Assembly (NCBI GenBank): GCA_002483345.1
Contig: DLHS01000015.1
Coordinates: 41,117-105,116 of the forward strand
DNA length: 64,000 nucleotides
From: Bacteroidetes bacterium UBA7662
GTDB lineage: Bacteria > Bacteroidota > Bacteroidia > UBA7662
Direction of reading: 5' to 3'
The notes under the pieces are model-generated. The model saw only the letters and a list, made by a program, of their open reading frames with translations. It had not been told where the DNA came from and did no database searches. Positions 9,742 to 59,005 of this stretch are shown here, one piece after another (the first letter of the stretch is position 1; each line of letters starts with the position of its first letter). Made by a program: the position numbers and the translations under genes.

Positions 9742-11028
9742 TCAGATCTGGGACAGGGCCTGATTCAAATCAGCCTGCAGGTCCTGAACATGCTCAATAC
9801 CAACCGAAAACCGGATCATGGCATCTCCAATGCCATATCTTGCCCGGTTGGCAGCTGTCATGGGGGCGTGACTGGTAGTTGCAGGGTGGGCACAAAGACT
9901 TTCTGTGCCACCCAGACTGACAGCCAGTCTGATCAGTTTCAGGGCATCGAGGAAACAAAAAGCTTCTTTTTCACCACCTTTTACATCGAAGGCAATCATC
10001 GCCCCTGAATGCTCGCATTGTTTGCGGAAAATAAGGTTATTGACACTATCTGTTTCTCCGGCCAGACCAGGATAATACACTTTCTTTACTTTTGGATGCT
10101 GATTTAACCAATCTGCCAGTTGCCGGGCATTGGCAGCCGCCTTTTCCATGCGGAGAGAAAGTGTTTCCAGACTCCTTAAAAGCAAAAAGCAGGTAAAAGG
10201 AGAGGCAGTAGCGCCCAGTTGGGTCCGCCAGCCACGAATGACTGCCATCAGCTCTTTCCGGCCGATGCAGGCACCTGCCATTACATCACTGTGGCCACCT
10301 ATATATTTGGTAGCGGAATAGAGTACTACATCCGCTCCGTGTTTGATAGGTTGCTGAAAAACGGGGCCGTAATAGGTATTATCAACCGTGAGTATGACTT
10401 CTTTTTCCGGTTTGGTCAGGATTTTTTTGATTTCAGCGGCGACACTCAGGTCGATCATCAGGTTATGCGGATTGCAGGGAGTTTCTACATGAATTACCCT
10501 GATTTTATCCCTGAATCCTGCCTGATCGATCCGACTAAGCACATCATCAACTGTATCGTTTGCGTCAAAAGCCAGGCTGTTAATCTGCATGGCTTTGAGT
10601 TGGGTGTGTATAAAGGCATCACAGCCACCATAAAGCGGATTGCTGTACAAAATCACATCTCCCGGCCTTAAGAGCGCCAACCAGCAGCTACTTATGGCTG
10701 CCATACCCGATTCGAAGGCCAAAGCAGCTTCTCCACCATCCCAAACACACAACCGTTCTTCCAGTGTCTGCAGGCCGGGATGGTTCCAGCGACTGTAAGC
10801 CATGGGTTCTGCCTCACCAGGTAACAGCTCACCACGCCCGTTTTTGTAGGCAAACAGCCGTTTCATGGTAGCCGAATCCGGGAAAACAAAGGTGGAGGAT
10901 TGGTAGATGGGGACTTTAAGGGCACCCCTGTCCTGGGTATAATCCTGGCTTAAGGAACCGAGTAAGGAATCCGGGTGAAGGGAGTTATCTGAAAAGTGCA
11001 TCTGCAATTTTCGGATATTATTTCTCAA
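9742..11028 (-). CDS. Cys/Met-metabolism PLP-dependent enzyme (trans-sulfuration family; O-acetylhomoserine sulfhydrylase / gamma-lyase type)
   Basis: PIYQSSTFVF... YSATKYIGGHSD PLP-lysine motif typical of PF01053; 428 aa. Confidence 0.8.
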   Translation of the reverse strand: MRNNIRKLQMHFSDNSLHPDSLLGSLSQDYTQDRGALKVPIYQSSTFVFPDSATMKRLFAYKNGRGELLPGEAEPMAYSRWNHPGLQTLEERLCVWDGGEAALAFESGMAAISSCWLALLRPGDVILYSNPLYGGCDAFIHTQLKAMQINSLAFDANDTVDDVLSRIDQAGFRDKIRVIHVETPCNPHNLMIDLSVAAEIKKILTKPEKEVILTVDNTYYGPVFQQPIKHGADVVLYSATKYIGGHSDVMAGACIGRKELMAVIRGWRTQLGATASPFTCFLLLRSLETLSLRMEKAAANARQLADWLNQHPKVKKVYYPGLAGETDSVNNLIFRKQCEHSGAMIAFDVKGGEKEAFCFLDALKLIRLAVSLGGTESLCAHPATTSHAPMTAANRARYGIGDAMIRFSVGIEHVQDLQADLNQALSQI

Positions 11029-23881: not shown

Positions 23882-23958
23882 GGTGGTTGTAGCTCAGTTG
23901 GTTAGAGCACTAGATTGTGGTTCTAGGGGTCGTGGGTTCGAGCCCCATCTTCCACCCA
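23882..23958 (+). tRNA. tRNA-His (anticodon GTG) with encoded G-1
   Basis: D-arm GCTC/AGTTGGTTA/GAGC, anticodon stem-loop CTAGA-TTGTGGT-TCTAG, T-arm GTGGG-TTCGAGC-CCCAT, discriminator C. Two T.T oppositions in the acceptor stem were noted. Confidence 0.8.
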
Positions 23959-24872: not shown

Positions 24873-25002
24873 GGCTGTCCCGGGAATGGAGCGCGTATCG
24901 TTATAAAGTTAAAAACAGGAGCGGCAAAGAAAAAACTGTCTCGCCTCCCACTTCTCACTGCCCGATTCTCGTTTCTCGATGTCTAAAAAACCCGGGACAG
25001 CC
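24873..25002. repeat. 12-bp inverted repeat GGCTGTCCCGGG...CCCGGGACAGCC enclosing a solo arm of the GAGAGGCGAGAC repeat family (24936..24983)
   Basis: Seen directly in sequence between the convergent ssb and T9SS-cargo genes. Confidence 0.45.
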
Positions 25003-25019
25003 TTTTAAACCCAAAATAC

Positions 25020-27062
25020 TTATCGGATAATAGCGAATTTGCCTGTTTGTATGTCGTTCGTTTTCATGTCTTTGACACTGAAAAGATAAAGACCGCTGGC
25101 AATGGCCTGTTTGTCGTCAGAAAGCACATCCCAGCCATGTTCTCCGCCTGCCATGGTAGTTTTAGCCGGGTCGCCCCCGAAGCTTGTATACCAGCCGCTG
25201 TTGGAGCCATTGAAGTCTGCCCCGGCATCATGGTTCAGCGTAGCCACGATATCTCCTGCCAGTGTATAGATTCTGATCTCCGCTCTTTCTGGCAGGTTGT
25301 AGAACATGATTTTACGCGTCCTGGAGGTTGTGCCGTCCCAGGCAGCCGAAATGCGGTATGGGTTCGGATACACCCCAACTTTGGAGGTTTTCCCCATCGG
25401 GCCTCCTTCAGTACCCGGGAAAATACGGTAGGCATTTTGCACCCTGGATGATTCCAGCGATTGCAGGCCAATGGCCGGATCACCTTCATCGAAAGATGTA
25501 ATGATGTAGAGATACTGCCAGCCATTCAGCAGGTTATCTACCTCAAACTTATACCAGTATCTGGTGGTGTCTCCTTCAAACAGCTTGGGTGTATTAAGAC
25601 GTACACCGTCAAAACCATTGTTGAAGCCGATACCATTGCCGGGTTTATCCCATTGACCAATCAGCGCGGCCTGTTCCAGCAAATTGGGTTTGAGGTCATC
25701 ACCCGGTTTGGTTCTGTAAACCCGGTAGCCCTCAAAATCCTGTTTTTTGGTAATGGGATCTATCGAAACGGCCGCAGAACTGTCCCAGTAAATGATGGCT
25801 TTGTTAGAGGCGGTTTCAATCCGCACTTTGGGTGGATTGGTTGGCTCAGGGAGTATGTATCTGTCCAGCCGGTTGTTATTGTTCAGGTCTTCACCCGCAT
25901 CCAAACGGCCATTCTCATTGGTGTCTTCTCCTACGTAGGTGCGTTTTGCCCAGCCCAGGTTCTCGCGTAGCAGGGCTTTGGCATTGTAGCTGTCTTTCGG
26001 CACATCGTCTATCTGTCGGGCGCAGACTACAGCCAGAACCAGACCAACGGTCTCACCGGGTTCTACCCGGGTTACCGGTCCTATGCTGTACAATTGTACC
26101 CGGTTTGCAGGAGCTGCCAGACCGGCTGCCGGGCTGAAATCACCGCGGTTACGCATCCGGTCATAACGCTGCTGATCGTTGGTCGGAGCGGAGACATTGT
26201 ACAACCAGTAGTTTGGGTTAGCACGGGGTGCGGGTAAACCCTGATTGGTGAATGTATTGGCATTGTTCGGATGGAAATACTGATTTCTCCACTCAATACC
26301 CAGAAATTGAATAGCTCCGTAAGAGTTGGTAAAACCCGGGTCGCCGGTTACATCGTAGGCGTACAAGGCGAGGAGCGTGTCTTCAAAGCCAATACTTCCC
26401 TTATTGAAAAAGGCACTTCCACGATCTACTGTAACATTTACATTCCGAACCACCAGGTCGCTCCACATACCGAGATACACCGAATCCCACGCACTTCCGG
26501 AATTATTGGTGATCTGATAGTTCAGGATAACAAAATAGTCGGCAAAGGAGAAGTTCCAGGCATAGGTTTCAAGCCTTACCCGTGCATTCAGCGGGTTCAG
26601 GTGGTTGTTGATGGGTTGGTTGGTACCCGGAACAATGGTGAATTCGTCGGTAAAGTTGAGGATATTATCTTCATGGGAAATAGCTTGTGTGCTGAACACT
26701 TCGCTACCCGGAAGGCTTGACCGTTGTAGAATAGGAGAGCCGGGCATGGCTGAATATTCGAAGCCTGCTTTTCCGGTAGCGTAGCCGGAAGCATCATCGA
26801 GCGAACCGGTTGAAACGGCAAGCTGGCCATTCTGGTAGGCTCCGATCCATAAGCCAGCCTCAAACAGATGTTCGACCCCTGAGTTGAGCGGGTACTCCAT
26901 GGAAGGCGGCCCTTGCGGGTCGTTGCGCACGTTGGGGCGCCCAACGGTGCCCACATTGGTCACATTCAAGCCAATATTGCCTATCTGGATAGATTTCTGG
27001 TCAAATTGTGCTGACAGTTCGCCGGCGAACAGCAAACAAGCCAGTAACAGGATTCGCTTCAT
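25020..27062 (-). CDS. hypothetical secreted protein with extended T9SS-type C-terminal sorting domain
   Basis: Signal peptide MKRILLLACLLFAGELSAQ; C-terminal VYPNPYRISAAW...GLYLFSV...KFAIIR. Confidence 0.7.
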   Translation of the reverse strand: MKRILLLACLLFAGELSAQFDQKSIQIGNIGLNVTNVGTVGRPNVRNDPQGPPSMEYPLNSGVEHLFEAGLWIGAYQNGQLAVSTGSLDDASGYATGKAGFEYSAMPGSPILQRSSLPGSEVFSTQAISHEDNILNFTDEFTIVPGTNQPINNHLNPLNARVRLETYAWNFSFADYFVILNYQITNNSGSAWDSVYLGMWSDLVVRNVNVTVDRGSAFFNKGSIGFEDTLLALYAYDVTGDPGFTNSYGAIQFLGIEWRNQYFHPNNANTFTNQGLPAPRANPNYWLYNVSAPTNDQQRYDRMRNRGDFSPAAGLAAPANRVQLYSIGPVTRVEPGETVGLVLAVVCARQIDDVPKDSYNAKALLRENLGWAKRTYVGEDTNENGRLDAGEDLNNNNRLDRYILPEPTNPPKVRIETASNKAIIYWDSSAAVSIDPITKKQDFEGYRVYRTKPGDDLKPNLLEQAALIGQWDKPGNGIGFNNGFDGVRLNTPKLFEGDTTRYWYKFEVDNLLNGWQYLYIITSFDEGDPAIGLQSLESSRVQNAYRIFPGTEGGPMGKTSKVGVYPNPYRISAAWDGTTSRTRKIMFYNLPERAEIRIYTLAGDIVATLNHDAGADFNGSNSGWYTSFGGDPAKTTMAGGEHGWDVLSDDKQAIASGLYLFSVKDMKTNDIQTGKFAIIR

Positions 27063-31641: not shown

Positions 31642-32541
31642 GTGAACTGGGAAGCTGAAATCAAAGGATTCAAAGCATATCTCCAATTGGAGCGCTCTTT
31701 GTCGCCCAATACGGTGGAGGCTTACAGCAATGATATCGGTAAACTGGCACAGTATGCTGCCATGCAGCCCGGTCAGCCATCTTACCGCCAGCTCAAACAT
31801 CCCGATTTGCAGCGATTTCTGGAATGGATTAATGGTTTTCAGCTGACGGAAACCAGTCAGGCCCGTATTATCTCAGGTATCAAGGGTTTTTACCGCTATG
31901 CCGTATTGGAGGGCCTCATGCAGGAAAACCCCGCCGATCTGCTCGAAATGCCCCGCCTCAAACGAAAATTGCCGGAGGTACTTTCATTGGAAGAAATCAA
32001 CGAAATGCTGAGTTGTATCGATATGAGCAAACCCGAAGGACATCGCAACAAGGCACTGCTGGAGACATTGTATGGTTGCGGTCTGCGCGTAACGGAATTG
32101 ATAGATTTAAAATTATCCAACTTGTTTTTTCAGGCCGGCTTTATCCGGGTGGTAGGAAAAGGAGATAAAGAACGGATTGTTCCTATCGGCCAGGAGGCAC
32201 AAAAGGCCATCCAATGGTATGTTGACAGTCAGCGTAAAACGCTGAAAATTAAAAAAGGGCAGGAAGACTTTGTGTTTCTCAGCCGTAATGGCAGACAGCT
32301 CACCCGTGTCATGGTGTTTTTTATCATCAAAGAGCTCGCATCTCTGGCCGGTATTCATAAAAAAATAAGTCCGCATACCTTCCGGCATTCTTTTGCAACC
32401 CATCTGGTAGAAGCCGGAGCCGATTTGCGGGCGGTGCAGGATATGCTGGGCCATGAGAGCATCACCACCACCGAAATTTACACCCACATCAGCCGCGACT
32501 ACCTGCGAGAAGTTGTCATGAAATACCACCCCAGAGGATGA
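31642..32541 (+). CDS. xerD: site-specific tyrosine recombinase XerD
   Basis: N-terminal core-binding domain (YLQLERSLSPNTVEAYSNDI) and catalytic RHSFATHLVEAGADLRAVQDMLGHESITTTEIYTH. Confidence 0.8.
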   Translation: MNWEAEIKGFKAYLQLERSLSPNTVEAYSNDIGKLAQYAAMQPGQPSYRQLKHPDLQRFLEWINGFQLTETSQARIISGIKGFYRYAVLEGLMQENPADLLEMPRLKRKLPEVLSLEEINEMLSCIDMSKPEGHRNKALLETLYGCGLRVTELIDLKLSNLFFQAGFIRVVGKGDKERIVPIGQEAQKAIQWYVDSQRKTLKIKKGQEDFVFLSRNGRQLTRVMVFFIIKELASLAGIHKKISPHTFRHSFATHLVEAGADLRAVQDMLGHESITTTEIYTHISRDYLREVVMKYHPRG

Positions 32542-34447: not shown

Positions 34448-34834
34448 GGGTTGGATATTAATCTTTGGGAAGTGGCTGTTTGTCAGCTCAAAATAAGATT
34501 CTTATTTGATTTGAGCAGCAGGGAAGTAGAGAGAACAGGAAGGGATGCTGTAACGGAAGAACTATGGGCTGCATCTTCAAACCTGCGCATTCGGATGTCC
34601 TGTTTTCGGTGACGGAAAAAATAAAAAAGGGGTAAGCTACTTGCATCGCACCGCTCAACCGCCTACCCTTGCTGTATTCCTACCCTGGGGGATTCAGCAG
34701 GAGCTGGTCGTACAAGACTTACCCCAGGCGCAAAGGTACGCCTTTACTGCTTTTTTGCAGCCGGAAGTACAGAATTTCATAAGCATCAGCTTTTCAGCAG
34801 GATAAGATTGGTTTTTTCTCAATCATGGAATTTT

Positions 34835-34895
34835 TGTAAAGTTTACTTGTCAATATGTAAAGTTTACTTAACTTTGTAAAGTAAACTTGACAATC
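34835..34895 (+). promoter_or_regulatory. promoter/operator: three ~23-bp repeats TGTAAAGT(TT/AA)ACTTG(T/A)CAAT spaced 21 and 19 bp apart, overlapping a -33 TTG (34847) and -7 TAACTTTG (34869..34876)
   Basis: Direct repeats at 34835, 34856, 34875; the third copy carries the internal palindromic halves flipped; lies immediately upstream of the DUF2975-XRE operon. Confidence 0.5.
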
Positions 34896-35617: not shown

Positions 35618-37243
35618 ATGAACCTGGAATTCAACAAAAACGAAGACGAGTACAAGCAGCTGATGTATAAATACAAAGTCCGCTTCGAGCAAATCAAAAA
35701 GGGCGGTGGTGACAAAGCCATTGCGAAGTTGCACGAAAAAGGGAAACTGACTGCCCGTGAACGCATCGCTTTGTTGATAGACAAGGGTACAGAACCGCTG
35801 GAAGTAGGTGGATTTGCCGGCGAAGGCATGTATGCTGAGCACGGCGGCTGTCCTTCCGGTGGTGTGGTGGTGGTGGTGGCCTACGTGAGCAAACGCCTTT
35901 GTGTGATTGTAGCCAATGATGCCACTGTTAAGGCCGGCGCCTGGTTTCCAATCACCGGGAAAAAGAACCTCAGGGCCCAGGAAATAGCGATGGAGAACAA
36001 AATACCTATCATCTATCTGGTCGACAGTGCGGGGGTTTATCTGCCTATGCAGGATGAAATTTTCCCGGACAAGGAACATTTCGGTCGCATTTTCAGGAAC
36101 AATGCCATCATGTCGTCGGAAGGCATCGTTCAGATTGCCGCAGTGATGGGTTCGTGTGTGGCAGGGGGTGCTTATCTGCCGATTATGTCGGATGAGGCAC
36201 TCATTGTAGATAAAACGGGCAGTATCTTTCTGGCAGGCTCTTATCTGGTAAAAGCCGCCATCGGGGAAGATATCGATAATGAACTGCTGGGTGGCGCTAC
36301 CACACACTGCGAAATCAGCGGGGTGACAGACTACAAAATGCCCGACGACAAAACCTGCCTGGAAACCATCCGCAAGCTGGTAGACAAGCTGGGGCATGGT
36401 GATAAGACCGGCTACGACCGTGTTAAACCAGCCGCGCCAAAGAAAAATCCGGCTGATATTTACGGCCTTTTCCCCGTGAGTGGAAAGCCGTATGATGTAA
36501 CGGAAGTAATTGAACGTCTGGTAGATGATTCAGACTTTACGCCTTATAAGGAAGCCTATGGCCAGACCATTGTCTGTGGTTATGCCCGCATCGACGGCTG
36601 GGCAGTAGGAATTGTGGCCAACCAGCGTAAAATTGTAAAAAGCAAAAAGGGGGAGATGCAGATCGGCGGGGTGATCTACTCCGATTCGGCCGACAAAGCG
36701 ACCCGTTTTATCGCCAATTGCAATCAGAAGAAGATACCGCTGGTGTTTTTGCAGGATGTGACCGGTTTTATGGTCGGCAGTCGCTCGGAACATGGTGGTA
36801 TCATCAAAGACGGTGCGAAAATGGTTAATGCCGTGGCCAATTCCGTGGTACCCAAGTTCACCATTGTAACCGGGAACTCCTATGGAGCCGGCAATTATGC
36901 GATGTGTGGCAAAGCCTACGATCCCCGCCTGATTTACGCCTGGCCAACAGCAAAAATGGCCGTTATGGGTGGGGAGCAGGCGGCTAAAGTATTGCTGCAG
37001 ATCAATGTCAGTGCGGCCAAATCCAAAGGAGAACTGATTACCCCGGAGGCGGAGGCAGAAATGCTCAAAACCATTACCGACCGTTATACCAGCCAGACCA
37101 CGCCTGAGTATGCTGCTGCCCGTTTATGGGTAGATGGTATCATTGATCCGCTGGAAACCCGTAAAGTTATCAGCATGGGCATAGAAGCAGCCAATCACGC
37201 GCCCATTACGAAAAGGTTTAATATGGGTGTGCTGCAGGTATGA
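35618..37243 (+). CDS. acyl-CoA carboxylase carboxyltransferase (beta) subunit (propionyl-/methylcrotonyl-CoA carboxylase type)
   Basis: Two crotonase-fold CT domains; 541 aa; GGVVVVVA and later conserved CT blocks. Confidence 0.85.
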   Translation: MNLEFNKNEDEYKQLMYKYKVRFEQIKKGGGDKAIAKLHEKGKLTARERIALLIDKGTEPLEVGGFAGEGMYAEHGGCPSGGVVVVVAYVSKRLCVIVANDATVKAGAWFPITGKKNLRAQEIAMENKIPIIYLVDSAGVYLPMQDEIFPDKEHFGRIFRNNAIMSSEGIVQIAAVMGSCVAGGAYLPIMSDEALIVDKTGSIFLAGSYLVKAAIGEDIDNELLGGATTHCEISGVTDYKMPDDKTCLETIRKLVDKLGHGDKTGYDRVKPAAPKKNPADIYGLFPVSGKPYDVTEVIERLVDDSDFTPYKEAYGQTIVCGYARIDGWAVGIVANQRKIVKSKKGEMQIGGVIYSDSADKATRFIANCNQKKIPLVFLQDVTGFMVGSRSEHGGIIKDGAKMVNAVANSVVPKFTIVTGNSYGAGNYAMCGKAYDPRLIYAWPTAKMAVMGGEQAAKVLLQINVSAAKSKGELITPEAEAEMLKTITDRYTSQTTPEYAAARLWVDGIIDPLETRKVISMGIEAANHAPITKRFNMGVLQV

Positions 37244-37255
37244 GTTTGTAAGGAC

Positions 37256-37325
37256 GGGAGTGGAGATGGGAGTGTGGAGATGGGAGTATAAAGTTTTCTC
37301 TACTCTTCACGCTCCCATCTCCATA
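37256..37325. repeat. hairpin made of two tandem TGGAGATGGGAGT units plus one inverted copy, filling the convergent intergenic gap
   Basis: TGGAGATGGGAGTGTGGAGATGGGAGTAT ... GCTCCCATCTCCATA; ends 4 bp from the stop of the actin-like gene. Confidence 0.5.
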
Positions 37326-37328
37326 TTC

Positions 37329-38633
37329 CTACCAGGTTCCTGATATCAAAAACTTGTGAATGCGTTTGGTGGGAGCCTTTTCTACTGTTTTGGCTACTTT
37401 CGGAGCGGTTTCGGAAACAGTTTTTACGGTTGTGGCTACCGGCTCAGGAAAGGGACTTTCATCATCGATCAGGATTGCAGCGGGTTTGGCAGCAGGTTTT
37501 TCAACTTCAGCCGGTGCCTGTTTGGGTACTTCGGCAACTGGTGAGGCCTGACCATTGGTTTTTTCCTGCCTGGCGGTGGCTGCACCATTTACTTTGGGAG
37601 CGGCCTCCTGACTGTCGGCGTATAAGGTTACGATGGTGGTGGCATTGCCGATATCCAGACCAACGGCCATAGATTTATCACCGGTTGTTTCGAAAGAATG
37701 AATGCAATAGCCTTTGCTGGCCATGGCAGCCGGCTCATCGGGGATGACCAGATCGAGCACATCTTTGAATTCAGTACGGAATTGTTCCGCCAGATCTTCG
37801 TACATGGCACCACCTCCCACGAGGTAAAGTTTGTTGGCCCGCTGGAAGTCCGTGTCGAGGAAAGCACGCCGTAGTGCAGGCGAAATGACATCCTGGTAAT
37901 ATTGGGTCAGCGCCCGGGCACGGGCTTCTTTCAGATCAACCCGTTTGCGGCTGGCGAAGAGAAATCCTTTCTGGAACGCCACATCGATCTGGTGTTCGTT
38001 TTTAAGTTCGAGGTAATATTGACGACCTACTTCCTGCATCAGGAGATTTACGGCATAACGGAGTCCGTTGACAGAAACAGCGGTACGTTGCACGGTACCC
38101 GCTTCTGTGCTCAGTATCGCTTCACAAGTGCCGAATCCGAGACTCACCACAAAAAAGGAACCGCTGGCTGCCTGCTCTCCTTTGCGAAGTCCAAGAATAC
38201 AGCCTTGTATCTCAGGTATGATCTGCGCCTGCTCAACCTGTATCGGAATGTTTCGCCGCAAGCCGGTTGAATAGGTTGCAGCATCAAATTCGATGATGTG
38301 CTCCCGTTGAATAGCACTTACAGCCTGTTCCCGGTAGATAGGGTAGGTTGAGCTTGGGAAACCGCTTGATATGGTTAGTCTGGCTTTGTTGAGATGTTGA
38401 TTGGCCAGTAATAAACCAGATTTCAGCAGCAACGCATATTCTGTTTCAGATGGGGCAGAATTGATGTTTTTGTGCGGAGCAACACCTTCTGAAAGGGCGA
38501 GATCGCCTACAACATAAGCTCTTCTTTTTTCAAACAGTTTTAGCCCGTGTAAGAGGTCTGGTGCCACCTGACGTAACTCTGCATTGTTGCCTTCGATGAC
38601 ACTTGGGAACTGTAATACTTTGAACATAAGCAC
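37329..38633 (-). CDS. actin-fold ATPase of the ParM/AlfA-like family with apparently permuted phosphate-1 hairpin and disordered C-terminal tail
   Basis: Motif order in the 434-aa ORF: AYVVGDLALSEG (res ~40), FVVSLGFGTCEAIL (phosphate-2, ~165), KLYLVGGGA (~270), DEPAAMASKGY (~305), then MAVGLDIGNATTIVTLYAD (phosphate-1, ~322), then a P/A/K/E-rich tail. Confidence 0.55.
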   Translation of the reverse strand: MLMFKVLQFPSVIEGNNAELRQVAPDLLHGLKLFEKRRAYVVGDLALSEGVAPHKNINSAPSETEYALLLKSGLLLANQHLNKARLTISSGFPSSTYPIYREQAVSAIQREHIIEFDAATYSTGLRRNIPIQVEQAQIIPEIQGCILGLRKGEQAASGSFFVVSLGFGTCEAILSTEAGTVQRTAVSVNGLRYAVNLLMQEVGRQYYLELKNEHQIDVAFQKGFLFASRKRVDLKEARARALTQYYQDVISPALRRAFLDTDFQRANKLYLVGGGAMYEDLAEQFRTEFKDVLDLVIPDEPAAMASKGYCIHSFETTGDKSMAVGLDIGNATTIVTLYADSQEAAPKVNGAATARQEKTNGQASPVAEVPKQAPAEVEKPAAKPAAILIDDESPFPEPVATTVKTVSETAPKVAKTVEKAPTKRIHKFLISGTW

Positions 38634-46397: not shown

Positions 46398-46446
46398 GAT
46401 TTATATGATTTTCGCTGATGTACAACCAGCGAAAATCATATAAATC
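46398..46446. terminator. perfect 20-bp inverted repeat (GATTTATATGATTTTCGCTG / CAGCGAAAATCATATAAATC, 9-nt loop) between convergent genes; bidirectional terminator or REP-like element
   Basis: Seen directly in sequence. Confidence 0.5.
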
Positions 46447-49602: not shown

Positions 49603-51027
49603 ATGGCAGCAAACACACAAGAAGAGCATAGCTTTTTCGGCGATGTGCTCAAGTATTTCGACAACGCTTCTTCTTACCTGAATTATCCGGCAGGAATGCT
49701 CGATCAGATCAAGTATTGCAACAGTGTTTATCGCATGCGTTTCCCCGTTAAAGTGGATAACGGCATTGAAGTAATTGAAGCGTACAGGGTAGAGCACAGC
49801 CACCACCGCATGCCTACCAAAGGGGGTATTCGTTATTCAATGGCCGTAAATCAAGACGAGGTAATGGCATTGGCTGCCCTCATGACTTACAAATGCGCGA
49901 TTGTGGATGTTCCCTTCGGCGGTGCCAAAGGAGGTGTAAAAATCGACCCTAAAAATTACACAGAAGAACAGTTGGAGCGCATCACCCGCCGTTATACTTC
50001 AGAGCTTATCAAAAAGAATTTCATAGGCCCCGGTCTTGATGTGCCTGCACCTGATTATGGGACAGGGGAGCGAGAGATGGCCTGGATAGTTGATACCTAT
50101 GCTACCTTTTTTCCGGGTCAAACCGATGCCATTGGTTGTGTAACCGGAAAACCGGTCTCGCAGGGCGGTATCAATGGCCGCCGGGAAGCCACCGGCTTAG
50201 GTGTTTATTTCGGTATCCGAGAAGCTGTCAGCTTTGAGGACGATATGAAGCGGCTGGGTATGACAACCGGCCTGGTGGGTAAAACCATGGTTATTCAGGG
50301 CCTTGGCAATGTGGGCTACCATTGTGCCAAGTTTTTCTCTGAAGGAGGGGCCAGAATTATTTGTCTGGCCGAATACGAGGGGGCAGTGTATAATCCGGAT
50401 GGACTGGATTATCTGGCTGTAGTTGAGCACCGCCGCAGAACTGGCAGCATACTCAACTTCCCTGGTGCTACCAACCTTGCCAAAAATACCGATGCCCTGG
50501 AGCTTGATTGTGACATCCTGATTCCGGCTGCCCTGGAAAACCAGATACACGAAGGAAACGCAGCCCGTATCAAGGCCAAAATAATCGGTGAAGCGGCCAA
50601 CGGTCCTGTTACAGCGGAAGCAGAAGTAATCCTGAACAAAAAAGGTATCATGACCATCCCCGATATTTACCTGAATGCCGGTGGTGTAACGGTTTCTTAC
50701 TTCGAGTGGCTCAAAAACCTCTCACACGTTCGTTTTGGTCGTCTGGGCAAACGTTTCGACGAGAATCTGAACAACAGCATCATTACCGCCGTGGAGGAAA
50801 TGACCGGTAAAAATGTAAGTGACCGTCACAAACAACAAATCGGCCGGGGTGCAGATGAGGTAGATCTGGTGTACTCAGGACTGGAAGAGACGATGATTGA
50901 GGCCTATCGCCAGATTCGGGATGTGAAAATTGAGATGCCGCATGTGCCGGACTACAGGACAGCTGCCTTCATTGTGGCTATCCGCAAGATTGCCCGTTCG
51001 TACGAGTCTCTGGGCTTATTCCCTTAG
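49603..51027 (+). CDS. gdhA: glutamate dehydrogenase (Glu/Leu/Phe/Val DH family)
   Basis: Catalytic block [12 protein letters not shown]; Rossmann GLGNVG; 474 aa. Confidence 0.9.
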
Positions 51028-51167
51028 ATTTTGAGATTTCGAGAGGCGAGACTTTTTGACCGCTGCGCGGTGGATTTAAGGCTTGTCCGAAATGTTGGAC
51101 TGCGCCCAAAGACGCATGTAGGCTGTGGTCTACTGCACAAAAGTCTCGCCTCTCACTTCTCAAAATC
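51027..51167. repeat. MITE/REP-like element: ~30-bp terminal inverted repeats (GATTTTGAGA..GAGAGGCGAGACTTTT) flanking an ~80-bp core with an internal hairpin; fills the gap between gdh stop and merR stop exactly
   Basis: 5' arm 51027..51057, 3' arm 51139..51167 (reverse complement nearly identical). Confidence 0.55.
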
Positions 51168-51917
51168 TTATACTCTTAAACAGTAAACCAGCATGGCTTT
51201 GCTGAGAAATGCCGCTAAGCCTGGTTTTACTTTATCGTAGGTGGCTTTGAAACGCTCGTCTTCTACATATAGCTGCGCCCAGGCACGGTAAACTGTCAGA
51301 TCGGCCGGATAAAAGCTGGTGGTGTACTGATGGTGTTTCTTTACCCATTCCTGCACCCTGGGATCGTCAGCCTGCAGATGCATCAGTTTGCTGAGCGCGA
51401 GGTTGATTTCATCCCCTTCTTTTTGCAAAGCCAGCACCGTTGCCTTGTCGAGGCTGTTCAGTCTTGTTTTGGTTTCATCCAGGGTAGCGGCACCATATTT
51501 TTCTGCCACTTCGCTTTCCAGGGCCTGTACTTTTTCCTTACGAAAACCTTTGTACAGCATGTCGTAATTGCTCATTTTTTCTTCTTTTTTGAGTTGATGA
51601 AGGGTTTCATCGAGTGTATGAAGCAGTACCTGCAGCCTTCTTTGCCTTTGCTGCAGCTTTTCCCGGTGGAAAAGAAGGGCAGTTTCACGGTTAAATCTGG
51701 GGTCGTCTAATAATAGCCGTATCTCTTCCAGCGGGAAATCGAGTTCCCTGTAAAAAAGAATCTGCTGCAAACGATAAAGTTCCGATTCACCATAGTAGCG
51801 GTACCCGGATCTTTTGCGTTCTCCCGGCTTTAGCAGACCAATCTGGTCATAATGGTGAAGCGTGCGCACACTCACCGATGCCAGCTTTGCCAATTGATTT
51901 ACTGTGTATTGTTCCAT
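51168..51917 (-). CDS. MerR family transcriptional regulator with C-terminal effector domain
   Basis: N-terminal YTVNQLAKLASVSVRTLHHYDQIGLL HTH. Confidence 0.85.
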   Translation of the reverse strand: MEQYTVNQLAKLASVSVRTLHHYDQIGLLKPGERKRSGYRYYGESELYRLQQILFYRELDFPLEEIRLLLDDPRFNRETALLFHREKLQQRQRRLQVLLHTLDETLHQLKKEEKMSNYDMLYKGFRKEKVQALESEVAEKYGAATLDETKTRLNSLDKATVLALQKEGDEINLALSKLMHLQADDPRVQEWVKKHHQYTTSFYPADLTVYRAWAQLYVEDERFKATYDKVKPGLAAFLSKAMLVYCLRV

Positions 51918-51977
51918 ATCTCAACTTGAAGACAAAGTAAAACTATCACGTAAGGTGAGAGTCAAGCTTTTTTTGTT

Positions 51978-52112
51978 GACATCGAGAGGGCGAGAGGCGA
52001 GACTGGCTTTCCTGAGCTTTGTGAAACTTGGCAAACTCCGTGTATTCGGAGTTAAAAAGACTCCAAGCCAGCGTAGAGTAAAGCCAGTCTCGCCTCTCGA
52101 AATCTCGATGTC
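51978..52112. repeat. second MITE/REP-like element of the same family (TIR GACATCGAGA..GAGAGGCGAGACTGGCTTT) in the merR upstream region
   Basis: 5' arm 51978..52010, 3' arm 52080..52112; internal hairpin AACTCCG/CGGAGTT. Confidence 0.55.
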
Positions 52113-52159
52113 TGAAAAAAAACCGCGCCATTCGCTTGCCACAAGGAAGCTGCCAGGGC

Positions 52160-52807
52160 CTAGGCGATCGATTCTGATTGTATGCTTTCGATTACTTTCA
52201 GCGTCTGATCCAGTGAGCTGTATCCCTGGCATACCAGGAAATAGTTATCGTTACGTCTGTAAATGAGGGTAGGGAAACCGCTCACACCAAATTTAGCAAC
52301 ATGATCAAATTCATCTTTGGTTGCCAGTTTATAGCTGAAATCGTTGAACCTTGTCCTGAAATCTTCTTCCTCCATACCCAGTTCATGTGCCAGTACCACA
52401 TAACTTTCAGCCACATTGGGGTTAAAACCGTGGTGATAAATGACCTTCTGAATTTCATGGGCAATGTGCACCGCCTGTTTGGGTGCAAACTCTTTCAGTA
52501 TAACCCCCGCCCGACTGGGGGGCTCTGAATCGAAGATGGTTTTACCGCCATCCATGAGCTCAGCCAGAAAAGGCTGACCGAAACGCACTCCCGTGAGCTC
52601 TTCCACCCGTTTGTAAGCGGTTTTGACATAGGGAGCAACCACTCCTATAGGTCCTGATCTCTCACCCAGCATCATACCACCGGCATATACTGAGAAGGGG
52701 AGAGTAGCTCCCAATCTCTGGTGTAAATCCACCATTACCTGACTAAAACCGTAGCACCAGCCGCAAAGGGGGTCGTACAGATAGATGATTTCGTTTTCTG
52801 ATTCCAT
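52160..52807 (-). CDS. DsbA-family thiol:disulfide oxidoreductase-like protein (FrnE/HCCA-isomerase-like)
   Basis: CGWC thioredoxin-fold active site near the N-terminus; 215 aa. Confidence 0.75.
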   Translation of the reverse strand: MESENEIIYLYDPLCGWCYGFSQVMVDLHQRLGATLPFSVYAGGMMLGERSGPIGVVAPYVKTAYKRVEELTGVRFGQPFLAELMDGGKTIFDSEPPSRAGVILKEFAPKQAVHIAHEIQKVIYHHGFNPNVAESYVVLAHELGMEEEDFRTRFNDFSYKLATKDEFDHVAKFGVSGFPTLIYRRNDNYFLVCQGYSSLDQTLKVIESIQSESIA

Positions 52808-58249: not shown

Positions 58250-58977
58250 GTTTTTAAACGGCGTATAATCCGCAACTGGTGGCTGTACTGTCCGTTGGCT
58301 TTGTTGAAGATGCCCTGGTGGTCGAATAAATCGATGCGTACCTGGCCTGAAGCATGCAGTATTTCGCTTTCATTGAGTAATAAGCCTACATGTACGATAC
58401 GGCCCTCCGCATTGTCAAAAAAGGCTAAATCTCCTGCCCTTGCTTCTGCTACGAGGTGTACCATATCACCCAGCTCAGCCTGTTGCCAGGCATCCCGTGG
58501 GAGTTTTTTGCCATACATTTTGAATATCTGCTGCATCAGACCGGAACAATCAATGCCAAAGATGCTTTTACCTCCCCATAAATAGGGGGTGTTCAGGTAT
58601 AATCTGCCCGTCGCCTCGAGGCTTTTGGGGTTGTATGGCTGTGAATTCATACGACCCGGTATCAAACTGCCATGCGGCACCAGCATGGGTCCATCCGGCG
58701 TTTCTATTTTCTGAACCTGCTCCGTAACCCATGCCAGATGTTCAGAGTCATGTGTACTGTATTGTTTGTTGTCGATCCACCCTTCATAATCGTCCTCACC
58801 CTTTACCAGACTCCATTTAGCTTGTTTATCCAACACGCTGATTGATTCGCCATATAGTAACTGGCTTATTTGTTCACTTCGGTCGGAAGGTTCCCGACGC
58901 ATAGGAACCACGGGCAGATGGCAGTAGAAACTCATGGATACGAATTTGAGAAAAATAAAAAAGGCCTGTGCATCCAC
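58246..58977 (-). CDS. NlpC/P60 (C40) family peptidase with N-terminal SH3-like domain
   Basis: YLWGGKSIFGIDCSGLMQQIF catalytic Cys, downstream His (IVHVGL). Confidence 0.75.
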   Translation of the reverse strand: MDAQAFFIFLKFVSMSFYCHLPVVPMRREPSDRSEQISQLLYGESISVLDKQAKWSLVKGEDDYEGWIDNKQYSTHDSEHLAWVTEQVQKIETPDGPMLVPHGSLIPGRMNSQPYNPKSLEATGRLYLNTPYLWGGKSIFGIDCSGLMQQIFKMYGKKLPRDAWQQAELGDMVHLVAEARAGDLAFFDNAEGRIVHVGLLLNESEILHASGQVRIDLFDHQGIFNKANGQYSHQLRIIRRLKT

Positions 58978-59005
58978 AGGCCTTTTTGTTTTCTAAAAGT
59001 TTCGC

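Follow-up and report, generated by a model that had tools for sequence, protein, structure and literature searches.

For Proteobacteria and Cyanobacteria, small palindromic repeats have been described in detail, and to our knowledge they are poorly catalogued in Bacteroidota. Among the described systems, the Correia elements duplicate a TA dinucleotide. The insertion sequences (IS) IS1397 and ISKpn1 target loops in repetitive extragenic palindromic (REP) elements, and class C group II introns insert after terminators; both are autonomous and encode their enzymes. A REP unit is an imperfect palindrome of 20-40 bp with an unpaired GTAG or CGTC tag, by which the REP superfamilies are defined (PMC3733652). 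Inverted REP doublets with a spacer form hairpins, and singlets are treated as their decay products (Bertels & Rainey 2011, PMC3116915). In addition, moderately abundant non-REP families of terminal inverted repeats (TIR) flank genes for tyrosine transposases (TIRYT) and occur as single, dimeric or grouped units (Di Nocera et al. 2013, PMC3733652). This paper deals with a family of inverted-repeat elements in a 64,000-nucleotide stretch of the genome of Bacteroidetes bacterium UBA7662 (contig DLHS01000015.1, positions 41,117 to 105,116), called the window in the following, with coordinates counted from its first base. Two full copies, A and B, lie on either side of a merR gene, and two solo arms were identified at loci C and D. 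With a probability of about 0.6, they are interpreted as small palindromic repeats without coding function that form a family restricted to this lineage, and as non-autonomous mobile DNA similar to miniature inverted-repeat transposable elements (MITEs) or to REP doublets forming hairpins (REPINs).

The 12-mer GAGAGGCGAGAC was identified at four exact sites in the window, 51041-52 (+), 51143-54 (-), 51992-52003 (+) and 52087-98 (-), and with one mismatch at 24938-49 (-). These five matches compare with 0.19 expected from dinucleotide-preserving shuffles (n=100), none of which reached five. The 12-mer constitutes the inner part of inverted arms of 31-46 nt, which are built on a common plan. From the outer end inward, an optional T-run is followed by AGAYWTYGAGA, by a variable unpaired patch of 3-4 nt (TTTC, GGGC or AGT) and by YGAGAGGCGAGAC, after which the helix is extended in a copy-specific manner, by TTTT in copy A and by TGGCTTT in copy B. 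As read from their sequences, the arms are purine-rich, are not self-complementary and carry neither a GTAG nor a CGTC tag. By eye they consist of runs of three to six GAGAnnn heptamers, six in solo arm C and three in the other arms; since the periodicity of arm C was not called by Tandem Repeats Finder (TRF) at score 30, it is treated as descriptive only.

A profile hidden Markov model (HMM) built on the five arms retrieved exactly those five from the window, with E-values of 4e-11 to 1e-6, the next match having E = 11. When 10 kb beyond each window end were included, taken from another assembly of this strain with 100% identity, the HMM identified a sixth arm in contig L123 at 960-1012, about 8.5 kb past the window end (locus D). 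In all, the family comprises four loci with six arms in about 83 kb of this genome, and in an all-against-all comparison of these 83 kb the arms were the only dispersed repeat. Copies A and B are doublets of inverted arms spaced 63-82 nt apart, and C and D are singlets, truncated copies retaining a solo arm. The two arms of one copy are identical at 28/31 positions in A (A_L versus A_R) and at 27/31 in B, and arms of different copies at 21-25/31. In the outer helix, the copies are separated by three paired changes, with GATTTTGAGA in A versus GACATCGAGA in B. Three independent data sets (JGI 3300000271, SRR5322582 and SRR845265) contain the same sequence with 100% identity. A repeat family with inverted arms, as proposed in the initial annotation of this DNA, is thus borne out by the motif count, by the pairing of the arms and by the HMM, and it exists in the window and its flank. 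The initial annotation had listed three loci, and the motif is not confined to these, since locus D represents a fourth.

Copy A (51026..51168, unstranded) is a 143-bp palindromic element between the convergent genes gdh (stop codon TAG at 51025-27) and merR (stop codon at 51168-70). The 140-bp spacer separating the two genes in the window consists of copy A and nothing else, so that the coordinates agree with the earlier statement that the element fills the space from stop to stop. Its left arm A_L (51026..51057, +) reads AGATTTTGAGA-TTTC-GAGAGGCGAGAC-TTTT, and the right arm A_R (51138..51168, -) reads AGATTTTGAGA-AGT-GAGAGGCGAGAC-TTTT on the minus strand. Pairing is perfect over the outer 11 nt (51026-36 with 51158-68) and the inner 16 nt (51041-56 with 51139-54), with the unpaired patch of 3-4 nt between them. 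The core (51058..51137, unstranded) contains three small internal hairpins. Folded as RNA, copy A reaches -69.3 and -66.2 kcal/mol on the two strands (z -7.8 and -8.1), and no shuffle was as strong. The element is flanked by TTA on both sides, and both triplets coincide with the stop codons of gdh and merR.

Copy B (51968..52122, unstranded) is a 155-bp palindrome, including a T-run at one end and an A-run at the other, and is located between the stop codon of a dsbA-like gene (52160) and the merR promoter, in a spacer of 242 bp. The part from GACATC to GATGTC comprises 135 bp (51978-52112). It was this part that had been annotated initially; the presence of an element in the merR upstream region was confirmed, and its extent had to be corrected, as the inverted repeat continues for about 10 nt on each side into the T-run and the A-run. 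The repeat comprises 46 nt with 85% complementarity (51968-52013 with 52077-52122). Arm B_L (51968..52013, +) reads T7-GT-TGACATCGAGA-GGGC-GAGAGGCGAGAC-TGGCTTT, and arm B_R (52077..52122, -) reads T8-C-AGACATCGAGA-TTTC-GAGAGGCGAGAC-TGGCTTT on the minus strand, both enclosing a core (52014..52076, unstranded) with the apical hairpin AACTCCG...CGGAGTT. The inner hairpins quoted earlier for A and B are thus both present. With -79.2 and -76.4 kcal/mol on the two strands (z -11.6 and -9.8), the fold of copy B was likewise not matched in strength by any shuffle. Folding, which had been suggested as a check, therefore gave strong single hairpins for both copies, with z-scores of -7.8 to -11.6.

A putative merR promoter is located at 51933..51965 (-), with TTGAC at 51965-61 and TACTTTG at 51939-33. 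Copy B is placed 2-12 nt upstream of this promoter, which is intact, its A-run end stopping 2 nt short of it. Copy B would be part of the 3' untranslated region of the dsbA-like gene, upstream of the merR promoter, and may insulate or modulate the latter. A putative operator palindrome between the promoter boxes differs from that of relatives, being TCACcttacGTGA in the window versus TGACC...GGTCA at 9960-10000 in both L120 and L121, two relatives described below.

Further copies of the family are suggested by the assemblies of this strain. In two independent Logan assemblies, from SRR5322582 and from SRR845265, a contig ends within arm B_R, at window base 52092 (the ends of L127 and L128). 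In SRR5322582, the following contig begins at window position 52117 (the start of L119), the contig overlap being the 26 nt TTTCAGACATCGAGATTTCGAGAGGC. Since exact matches between B_R and the copies in the window do not exceed 20-21 nt, this reproducible break suggests that copies with a near-identical arm occur elsewhere in the genome; a drop in coverage at the strong hairpin may be an alternative cause. Another SRR845265 contig ends inside a tRNA gene at 23906. With breaks falling in arm B_R and in a tRNA gene, contig breaks in these assemblies are taken to mark repeats.

Solo arm C is located at 24931..24990 (-) in the 155-bp spacer between ssb and a convergent gene for a 680-amino-acid protein (25020-27062, -). 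On the minus strand it reads T6-AGACATCGAGA, followed by five more GAGAnnn-like heptamers and ending with GGGAGGCGAGAC, and it was recognized by the arm HMM with E = 1.2e-6. Around the arm, a 12-bp GC stem of the ssb terminator (24873..25006, +) was identified, with the halves GGCTGTCCCGGG at 24873-84 and CCCGGGACAGCC at 24991-25002 followed by TTTT. The two halves are 106 nt apart, and arm C lies within these 106 nt. Both the single arm near 24.9 kb and the 12-bp inverted repeat bracketing it had been annotated before and are real. The label of a type IX secretion system (T9SS) cargo given to the neighbouring gene is unsupported, because its 680-amino-acid product contains no Pfam domain and no Por_Secre_tail; the orthologue in the relative L135, also of 680 amino acids, gave no match either. 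Because L135 has an intact terminator at this place, in a spacer of 53 bp, the 12-bp inverted repeat around arm C is best read as the two halves of the host's own terminator stem, which was split when the loop received an insertion.

At locus D, the arm is found directly after the hairpin and T-tail terminator of rpmA, facing a convergent gene of the AraC family. It aligns with B_L and with about 19 further nt beyond it, into the core of B. No partner arm was identified for this arm.

The comparison with relatives, also proposed in the initial annotation, was carried out for three loci. Among 5.8 billion proteins, the best matches to MerR are 60-64% identical, apart from the identical strain. 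In the relatives L120 and L121, with a MerR of 60% identity, the gene order is the same over about 20 kb, including dsbA>merR><gdh. The dsbA-merR spacer comprises 73 bp in L120 and 71 bp in L121, versus the 242 bp of the window, and the merR-gdh spacer 59 and 55 bp, respectively, versus 140 bp. Each of the merR-gdh spacers of the relatives holds a bidirectional terminator with a GC-hairpin and a T-run, for example, AAAGGCTGCC-cgaa-GGCAGCCTTT. The promoter region of merR (TTGAC ... TACTTTG) is conserved in all three genomes. At the third locus, L135 shows the same gene order, with the 53-bp spacer between ssb and the 680-amino-acid gene comparing with 155 bp in the window, and its ssb terminator is intact, with a 13-bp stem, a loop of 4 nt and a T-run (AAAGGGCCCTGA-ttt-TCAGGGCCCTTT). 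In 71 kb of sequence from relatives no arm was identified, and the long inverted repeats present there are ordinary terminators. Orthologous sites free of the element were thus found for A, B and C (3/3 loci), these relatives having short spacers and, at merR/gdh and at ssb, ordinary terminators.

Compared with the relatives, the elements are extra sequence at the three loci. The native terminator is missing between gdh and merR, with copy A in its place, and the hairpin of copy A may now serve as a 3'-end barrier or stabiliser for both genes. In this way a clear before-and-after picture is obtained at three loci, with relatives that have an ordinary terminator on one side and the element-bearing sites of this strain on the other, in which one native terminator is split and one is lost. 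As the relatives are distant (55-64% amino-acid identity), the exact insertion junctions are not reconstructable from them.

The elements are non-coding. Six-frame translations of A and B gave no protein match at E <= 10 among the 5.8 billion proteins. In the whole window, Rfam at the gathering threshold identified only tmRNA, SRP (signal recognition particle) RNA and one tRNA. In E-value mode, the region 50900-52300 matched only plant miRNA-precursor models, which are generic for long hairpins, with 22-27 bits versus thresholds of 72-195. The arms are thus not part of a conserved protein-coding or RNA gene. A terminator scan found no site within copy A or B, and on neither strand does a T-run come after one of the hairpins; where a T-run is present, at B and C, it precedes the arm and an A-run follows, which is the reverse of a terminator. 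Together with the fourth locus, the relatives lacking the elements and the absence of a transposase from about 105 kb, these results support the initial classification as non-autonomous MITE-like repeats, or repeats like REP and bacterial interspersed mosaic elements (BIMEs), in convergent terminator regions. An integron attC site, a CRISPR repeat and an RNA gene were also considered and were rejected, as no integron-type integrase, cas gene, Rfam match or regular spacing was present. The view of A and B as the ends of a composite transposon with merR inside was likewise rejected, since relatives without the elements keep the dsbA-merR-gdh synteny; the position of merR is ancestral, and merR is therefore not the cargo of a composite element.

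Several other inverted repeats were noticed in the window. An ordinary bidirectional terminator of this genome, with a GC-hairpin and a T-run, is present at 58953-58992 (AAAAAAGGCCTGTG / CACAGGCCTTTTT). As an example of an ordinary spacer, the convergent spacer at 46398-46446 contains the perfect 20-bp AT-rich inverted repeat GATTTATATGATTTTCGCTG. At 37261-37329, the spacer that separates a carboxyltransferase gene (35618-37243, +) from a convergent actin-like ALP_N gene (37329-38633, -) is taken up by a purine-rich hairpin, in which a tandem of two GGAGATGGGAG units is paired with CTCCCATCTCC (-43 kcal/mol, z -6.3). In composition this hairpin is similar to arm C (GAGAAGTGGGAGG), but it is not detected by the arm HMM. 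Between the SRP RNA gene (34626-34731) and an open reading frame (ORF) of 156 amino acids without a Pfam match, TTGTAAAGTTTACTTGTCAA occurs two or three times at 34834-34893, both direct and inverted, and by its appearance this repeat looks like an operator.

In the interpretation as a MITE/REPIN-like family, the elements are or were probably mobile. The family-defining unit would be the arm of 31-46 nt. Two inverted arms would flank a core of 63-82 nt which differs between subfamilies, so that on both strands a full copy could form a single long hairpin. The enzyme proposed to recognize the arms and to move the element would be encoded elsewhere in the genome. Gene 3' ends, within or beside intrinsic terminators, would be the places where insertions are tolerated and where copies persist, with truncated copies surviving as solo arms. 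In the MITE version of this model, the whole palindrome would move and the arms would be terminal repeats bound by the transposase, A and B being subfamilies which share only these repeats.

A number of results weigh against this interpretation. The cores of A and B do not align locally any better than shuffled sequences, and since they share no significant similarity, they do not demonstrate replication from one master sequence. For the left part of locus C, the similarity to either core likewise did not exceed that of shuffles. A consistent target-site duplication was not found, the flanks of A being the two TTA triplets at the stop codons and inspection of the flanks of B having revealed no direct repeat. 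No transposase, no REP-associated tyrosine transposase (RAYT) and no IS with matching ends was identified in about 105 kb comprising the window and its flanks. The absence of a transposase stated initially is thereby extended to this region, in which the only gene of the integrase family is Xer-like (31642-32541). The known loci number only four, in sequence covering about 83 kb of the genome, and the nearest relatives, with a MerR of 60-64% identity, do not provide an empty site at the nucleotide level. The paired pattern GAGAGGCGAGAC-N70-100-GTCTCGCCTCTC gave 0 matches in IMG/VR and 0 in the JGI metagenomes, and the single-arm pattern GAYWTYGAGANNNCGAGAGGCGAGAC gave 0 matches in the JGI metagenomes. 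A looser arm pattern gave five matches in IMG/VR, all in high-GC phage contigs; these were dismissed as chance, being without an inverted partner or further similarity. In blastn searches of A and B against the PLSDB plasmids, no matches were obtained.

To the database scans it has to be added that contig PBR_1000100 of JGI metagenome 3300000271 (L125) matches 22 kb of the window with 100% identity. The exact-pattern scans at JGI gave nothing although the strain occurs there, and PBR_1000100 may lie outside the scanned collection. A 14-mer, CGAGAGGCGAGACT, was found at at least 118 loci in a genome collection, mostly in unrelated, predominantly high-GC taxa, and these were regarded as chance matches; the source genome was absent among the matches listed. 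In three Rhizobiaceae contigs (L029, L042 and L054), the 14-mer is located at bases 33-50 from the contig start, which suggests an unrelated rhizobial repeat that breaks assemblies. In the literature, no papers with the core sequence were found for either strand.

The arm itself might be the unit, rather than the whole palindrome. The elements would then be REP dimers or 'TIR-repeat' elements of HUH tyrosine transposases (RAYT or TIRYT), which occur singly, as inverted dimers or grouped around unrelated linkers, and are moved via single-stranded DNA without target-site duplication. Such a model would account for arms which are common to A and B around unrelated cores, for the solo arms at C and D, for the lack of a target-site duplication at copy B and for the location downstream of genes, between convergent or co-oriented ORFs, and comparable cases have been described both for TIR families (PMC3733652) and for REP doublets (PMC3116915). 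However, the single arms form no palindrome and contain neither a GTAG nor a CGTC tag, and no gene for a Y1/HUH transposase is present in the 105 kb. In addition, the arm at locus D has kept its 19 or so nt of adjoining core, which favours a truncated whole element over an independent arm. The arm as the mobile unit is therefore considered possible, but rather unlikely.

A different explanation dispenses with mobility. The elements could be structures evolved by the host, either long 3'-end hairpins or protein-binding GAGAnnn arrays, which arose locally or by recombination and were kept for 3'-end formation, mRNA stability or nucleoid organisation. In agreement with this, copy A is the sole structure left between convergent genes whose orthologues have a bidirectional terminator, pairing was kept through the paired changes between A and B, all four loci are downstream of genes, and the purine-rich hairpin of similar composition at 37261-37329 fills a convergent spacer as well. 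On the other hand, hairpins which lack a following T-run, and which in B and C have T-run and A-run in the order reverse to that of a terminator, are not expected from such a role, and ordinary terminators are used elsewhere in the genome, for example, at 58953-58992. At the corresponding sites, relatives are free of the elements, the stem of a working terminator at locus C is split and not replaced, and the solo arms at C and D, being truncated, resemble products of decay more than functional structures. A host origin is thus regarded as improbable. Almost no weight is given to chance resemblance or to an assembly artefact, for which the small number of four loci and the missing TRF call for the heptamers might be quoted; it is opposed by the motif count, reached in 0/100 shuffles, by arm HMM E-values down to 4e-11 and by the identity of the sequence in three independent data sets.

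Beyond the MITE/REPIN-like interpretation, the elements could even be terminator-seeking palindromic mobile DNA of an undescribed type from a deep-branching lineage of Bacteroidota, with GAGAnnn arms and an unrecognised enzyme, which inserts into the loop or tail of terminators and may take over their role, as would be the case at gdh/merR; this remains a doubtful proposal. Provided that it is abundant in the genome as a whole, the family could be used as a marker for strain typing, would explain recurrent assembly breaks and would be a test case for the question whether such hairpins can take the place of intrinsic terminators.

In comparison to the described systems, the elements resemble bacterial MITEs, like Correia/NEMIS of Neisseria and ERIC/IRU of enterobacteria, in being 140-155 bp long, non-coding and intergenic, and in having long terminal inverted repeats and a fold into one hairpin. 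They are also likely to be cotranscribed with neighbouring genes, and in both cases subfamilies can share only the terminal repeats. They differ from MITEs of the Correia and ERIC type by the apparent lack of a consistent target-site duplication, by the lack of a cognate IS in the 105 kb and by arms consisting of a variable number of GAGAnnn units. The arm sequence is without a match in the literature or in the collections searched.

With REPINs and the REP doublets of RAYTs, the elements share the two inverted units with a spacer forming a hairpin, the solo units, the extragenic location downstream of genes, the apparent lack of a target-site duplication and the apparent restriction to a lineage (PMC3116915). 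However, REPINs differ in that the arms described here are non-palindromic and carry no GTAG or CGTC tag, no RAYT is encoded in the 105 kb and the two full copies have spacers unrelated to each other. Like the TIR families of TIRYT, the elements have non-REP inverted-repeat arms that occur as single or dimeric units (PMC3733652); in contrast to these, no TIRYT gene flanks them in the 105 kb, and the arms lack GGGGWSAS, a motif that several TIR types have in common.

The locations of the solo arms, at C inside the loop of a terminator hairpin and at D directly after a terminator tail, are reminiscent of IS1397/ISKpn1 and of class C group II introns, respectively. In contrast to these, only non-coding elements of about 150 bp are involved here, and a preference for such targets is without statistical support at four loci. 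The family is clearly associated with terminators, but there is no evidence of a new mechanism or class, and it adds one more example to an established class, that of small palindromic repeats between genes.

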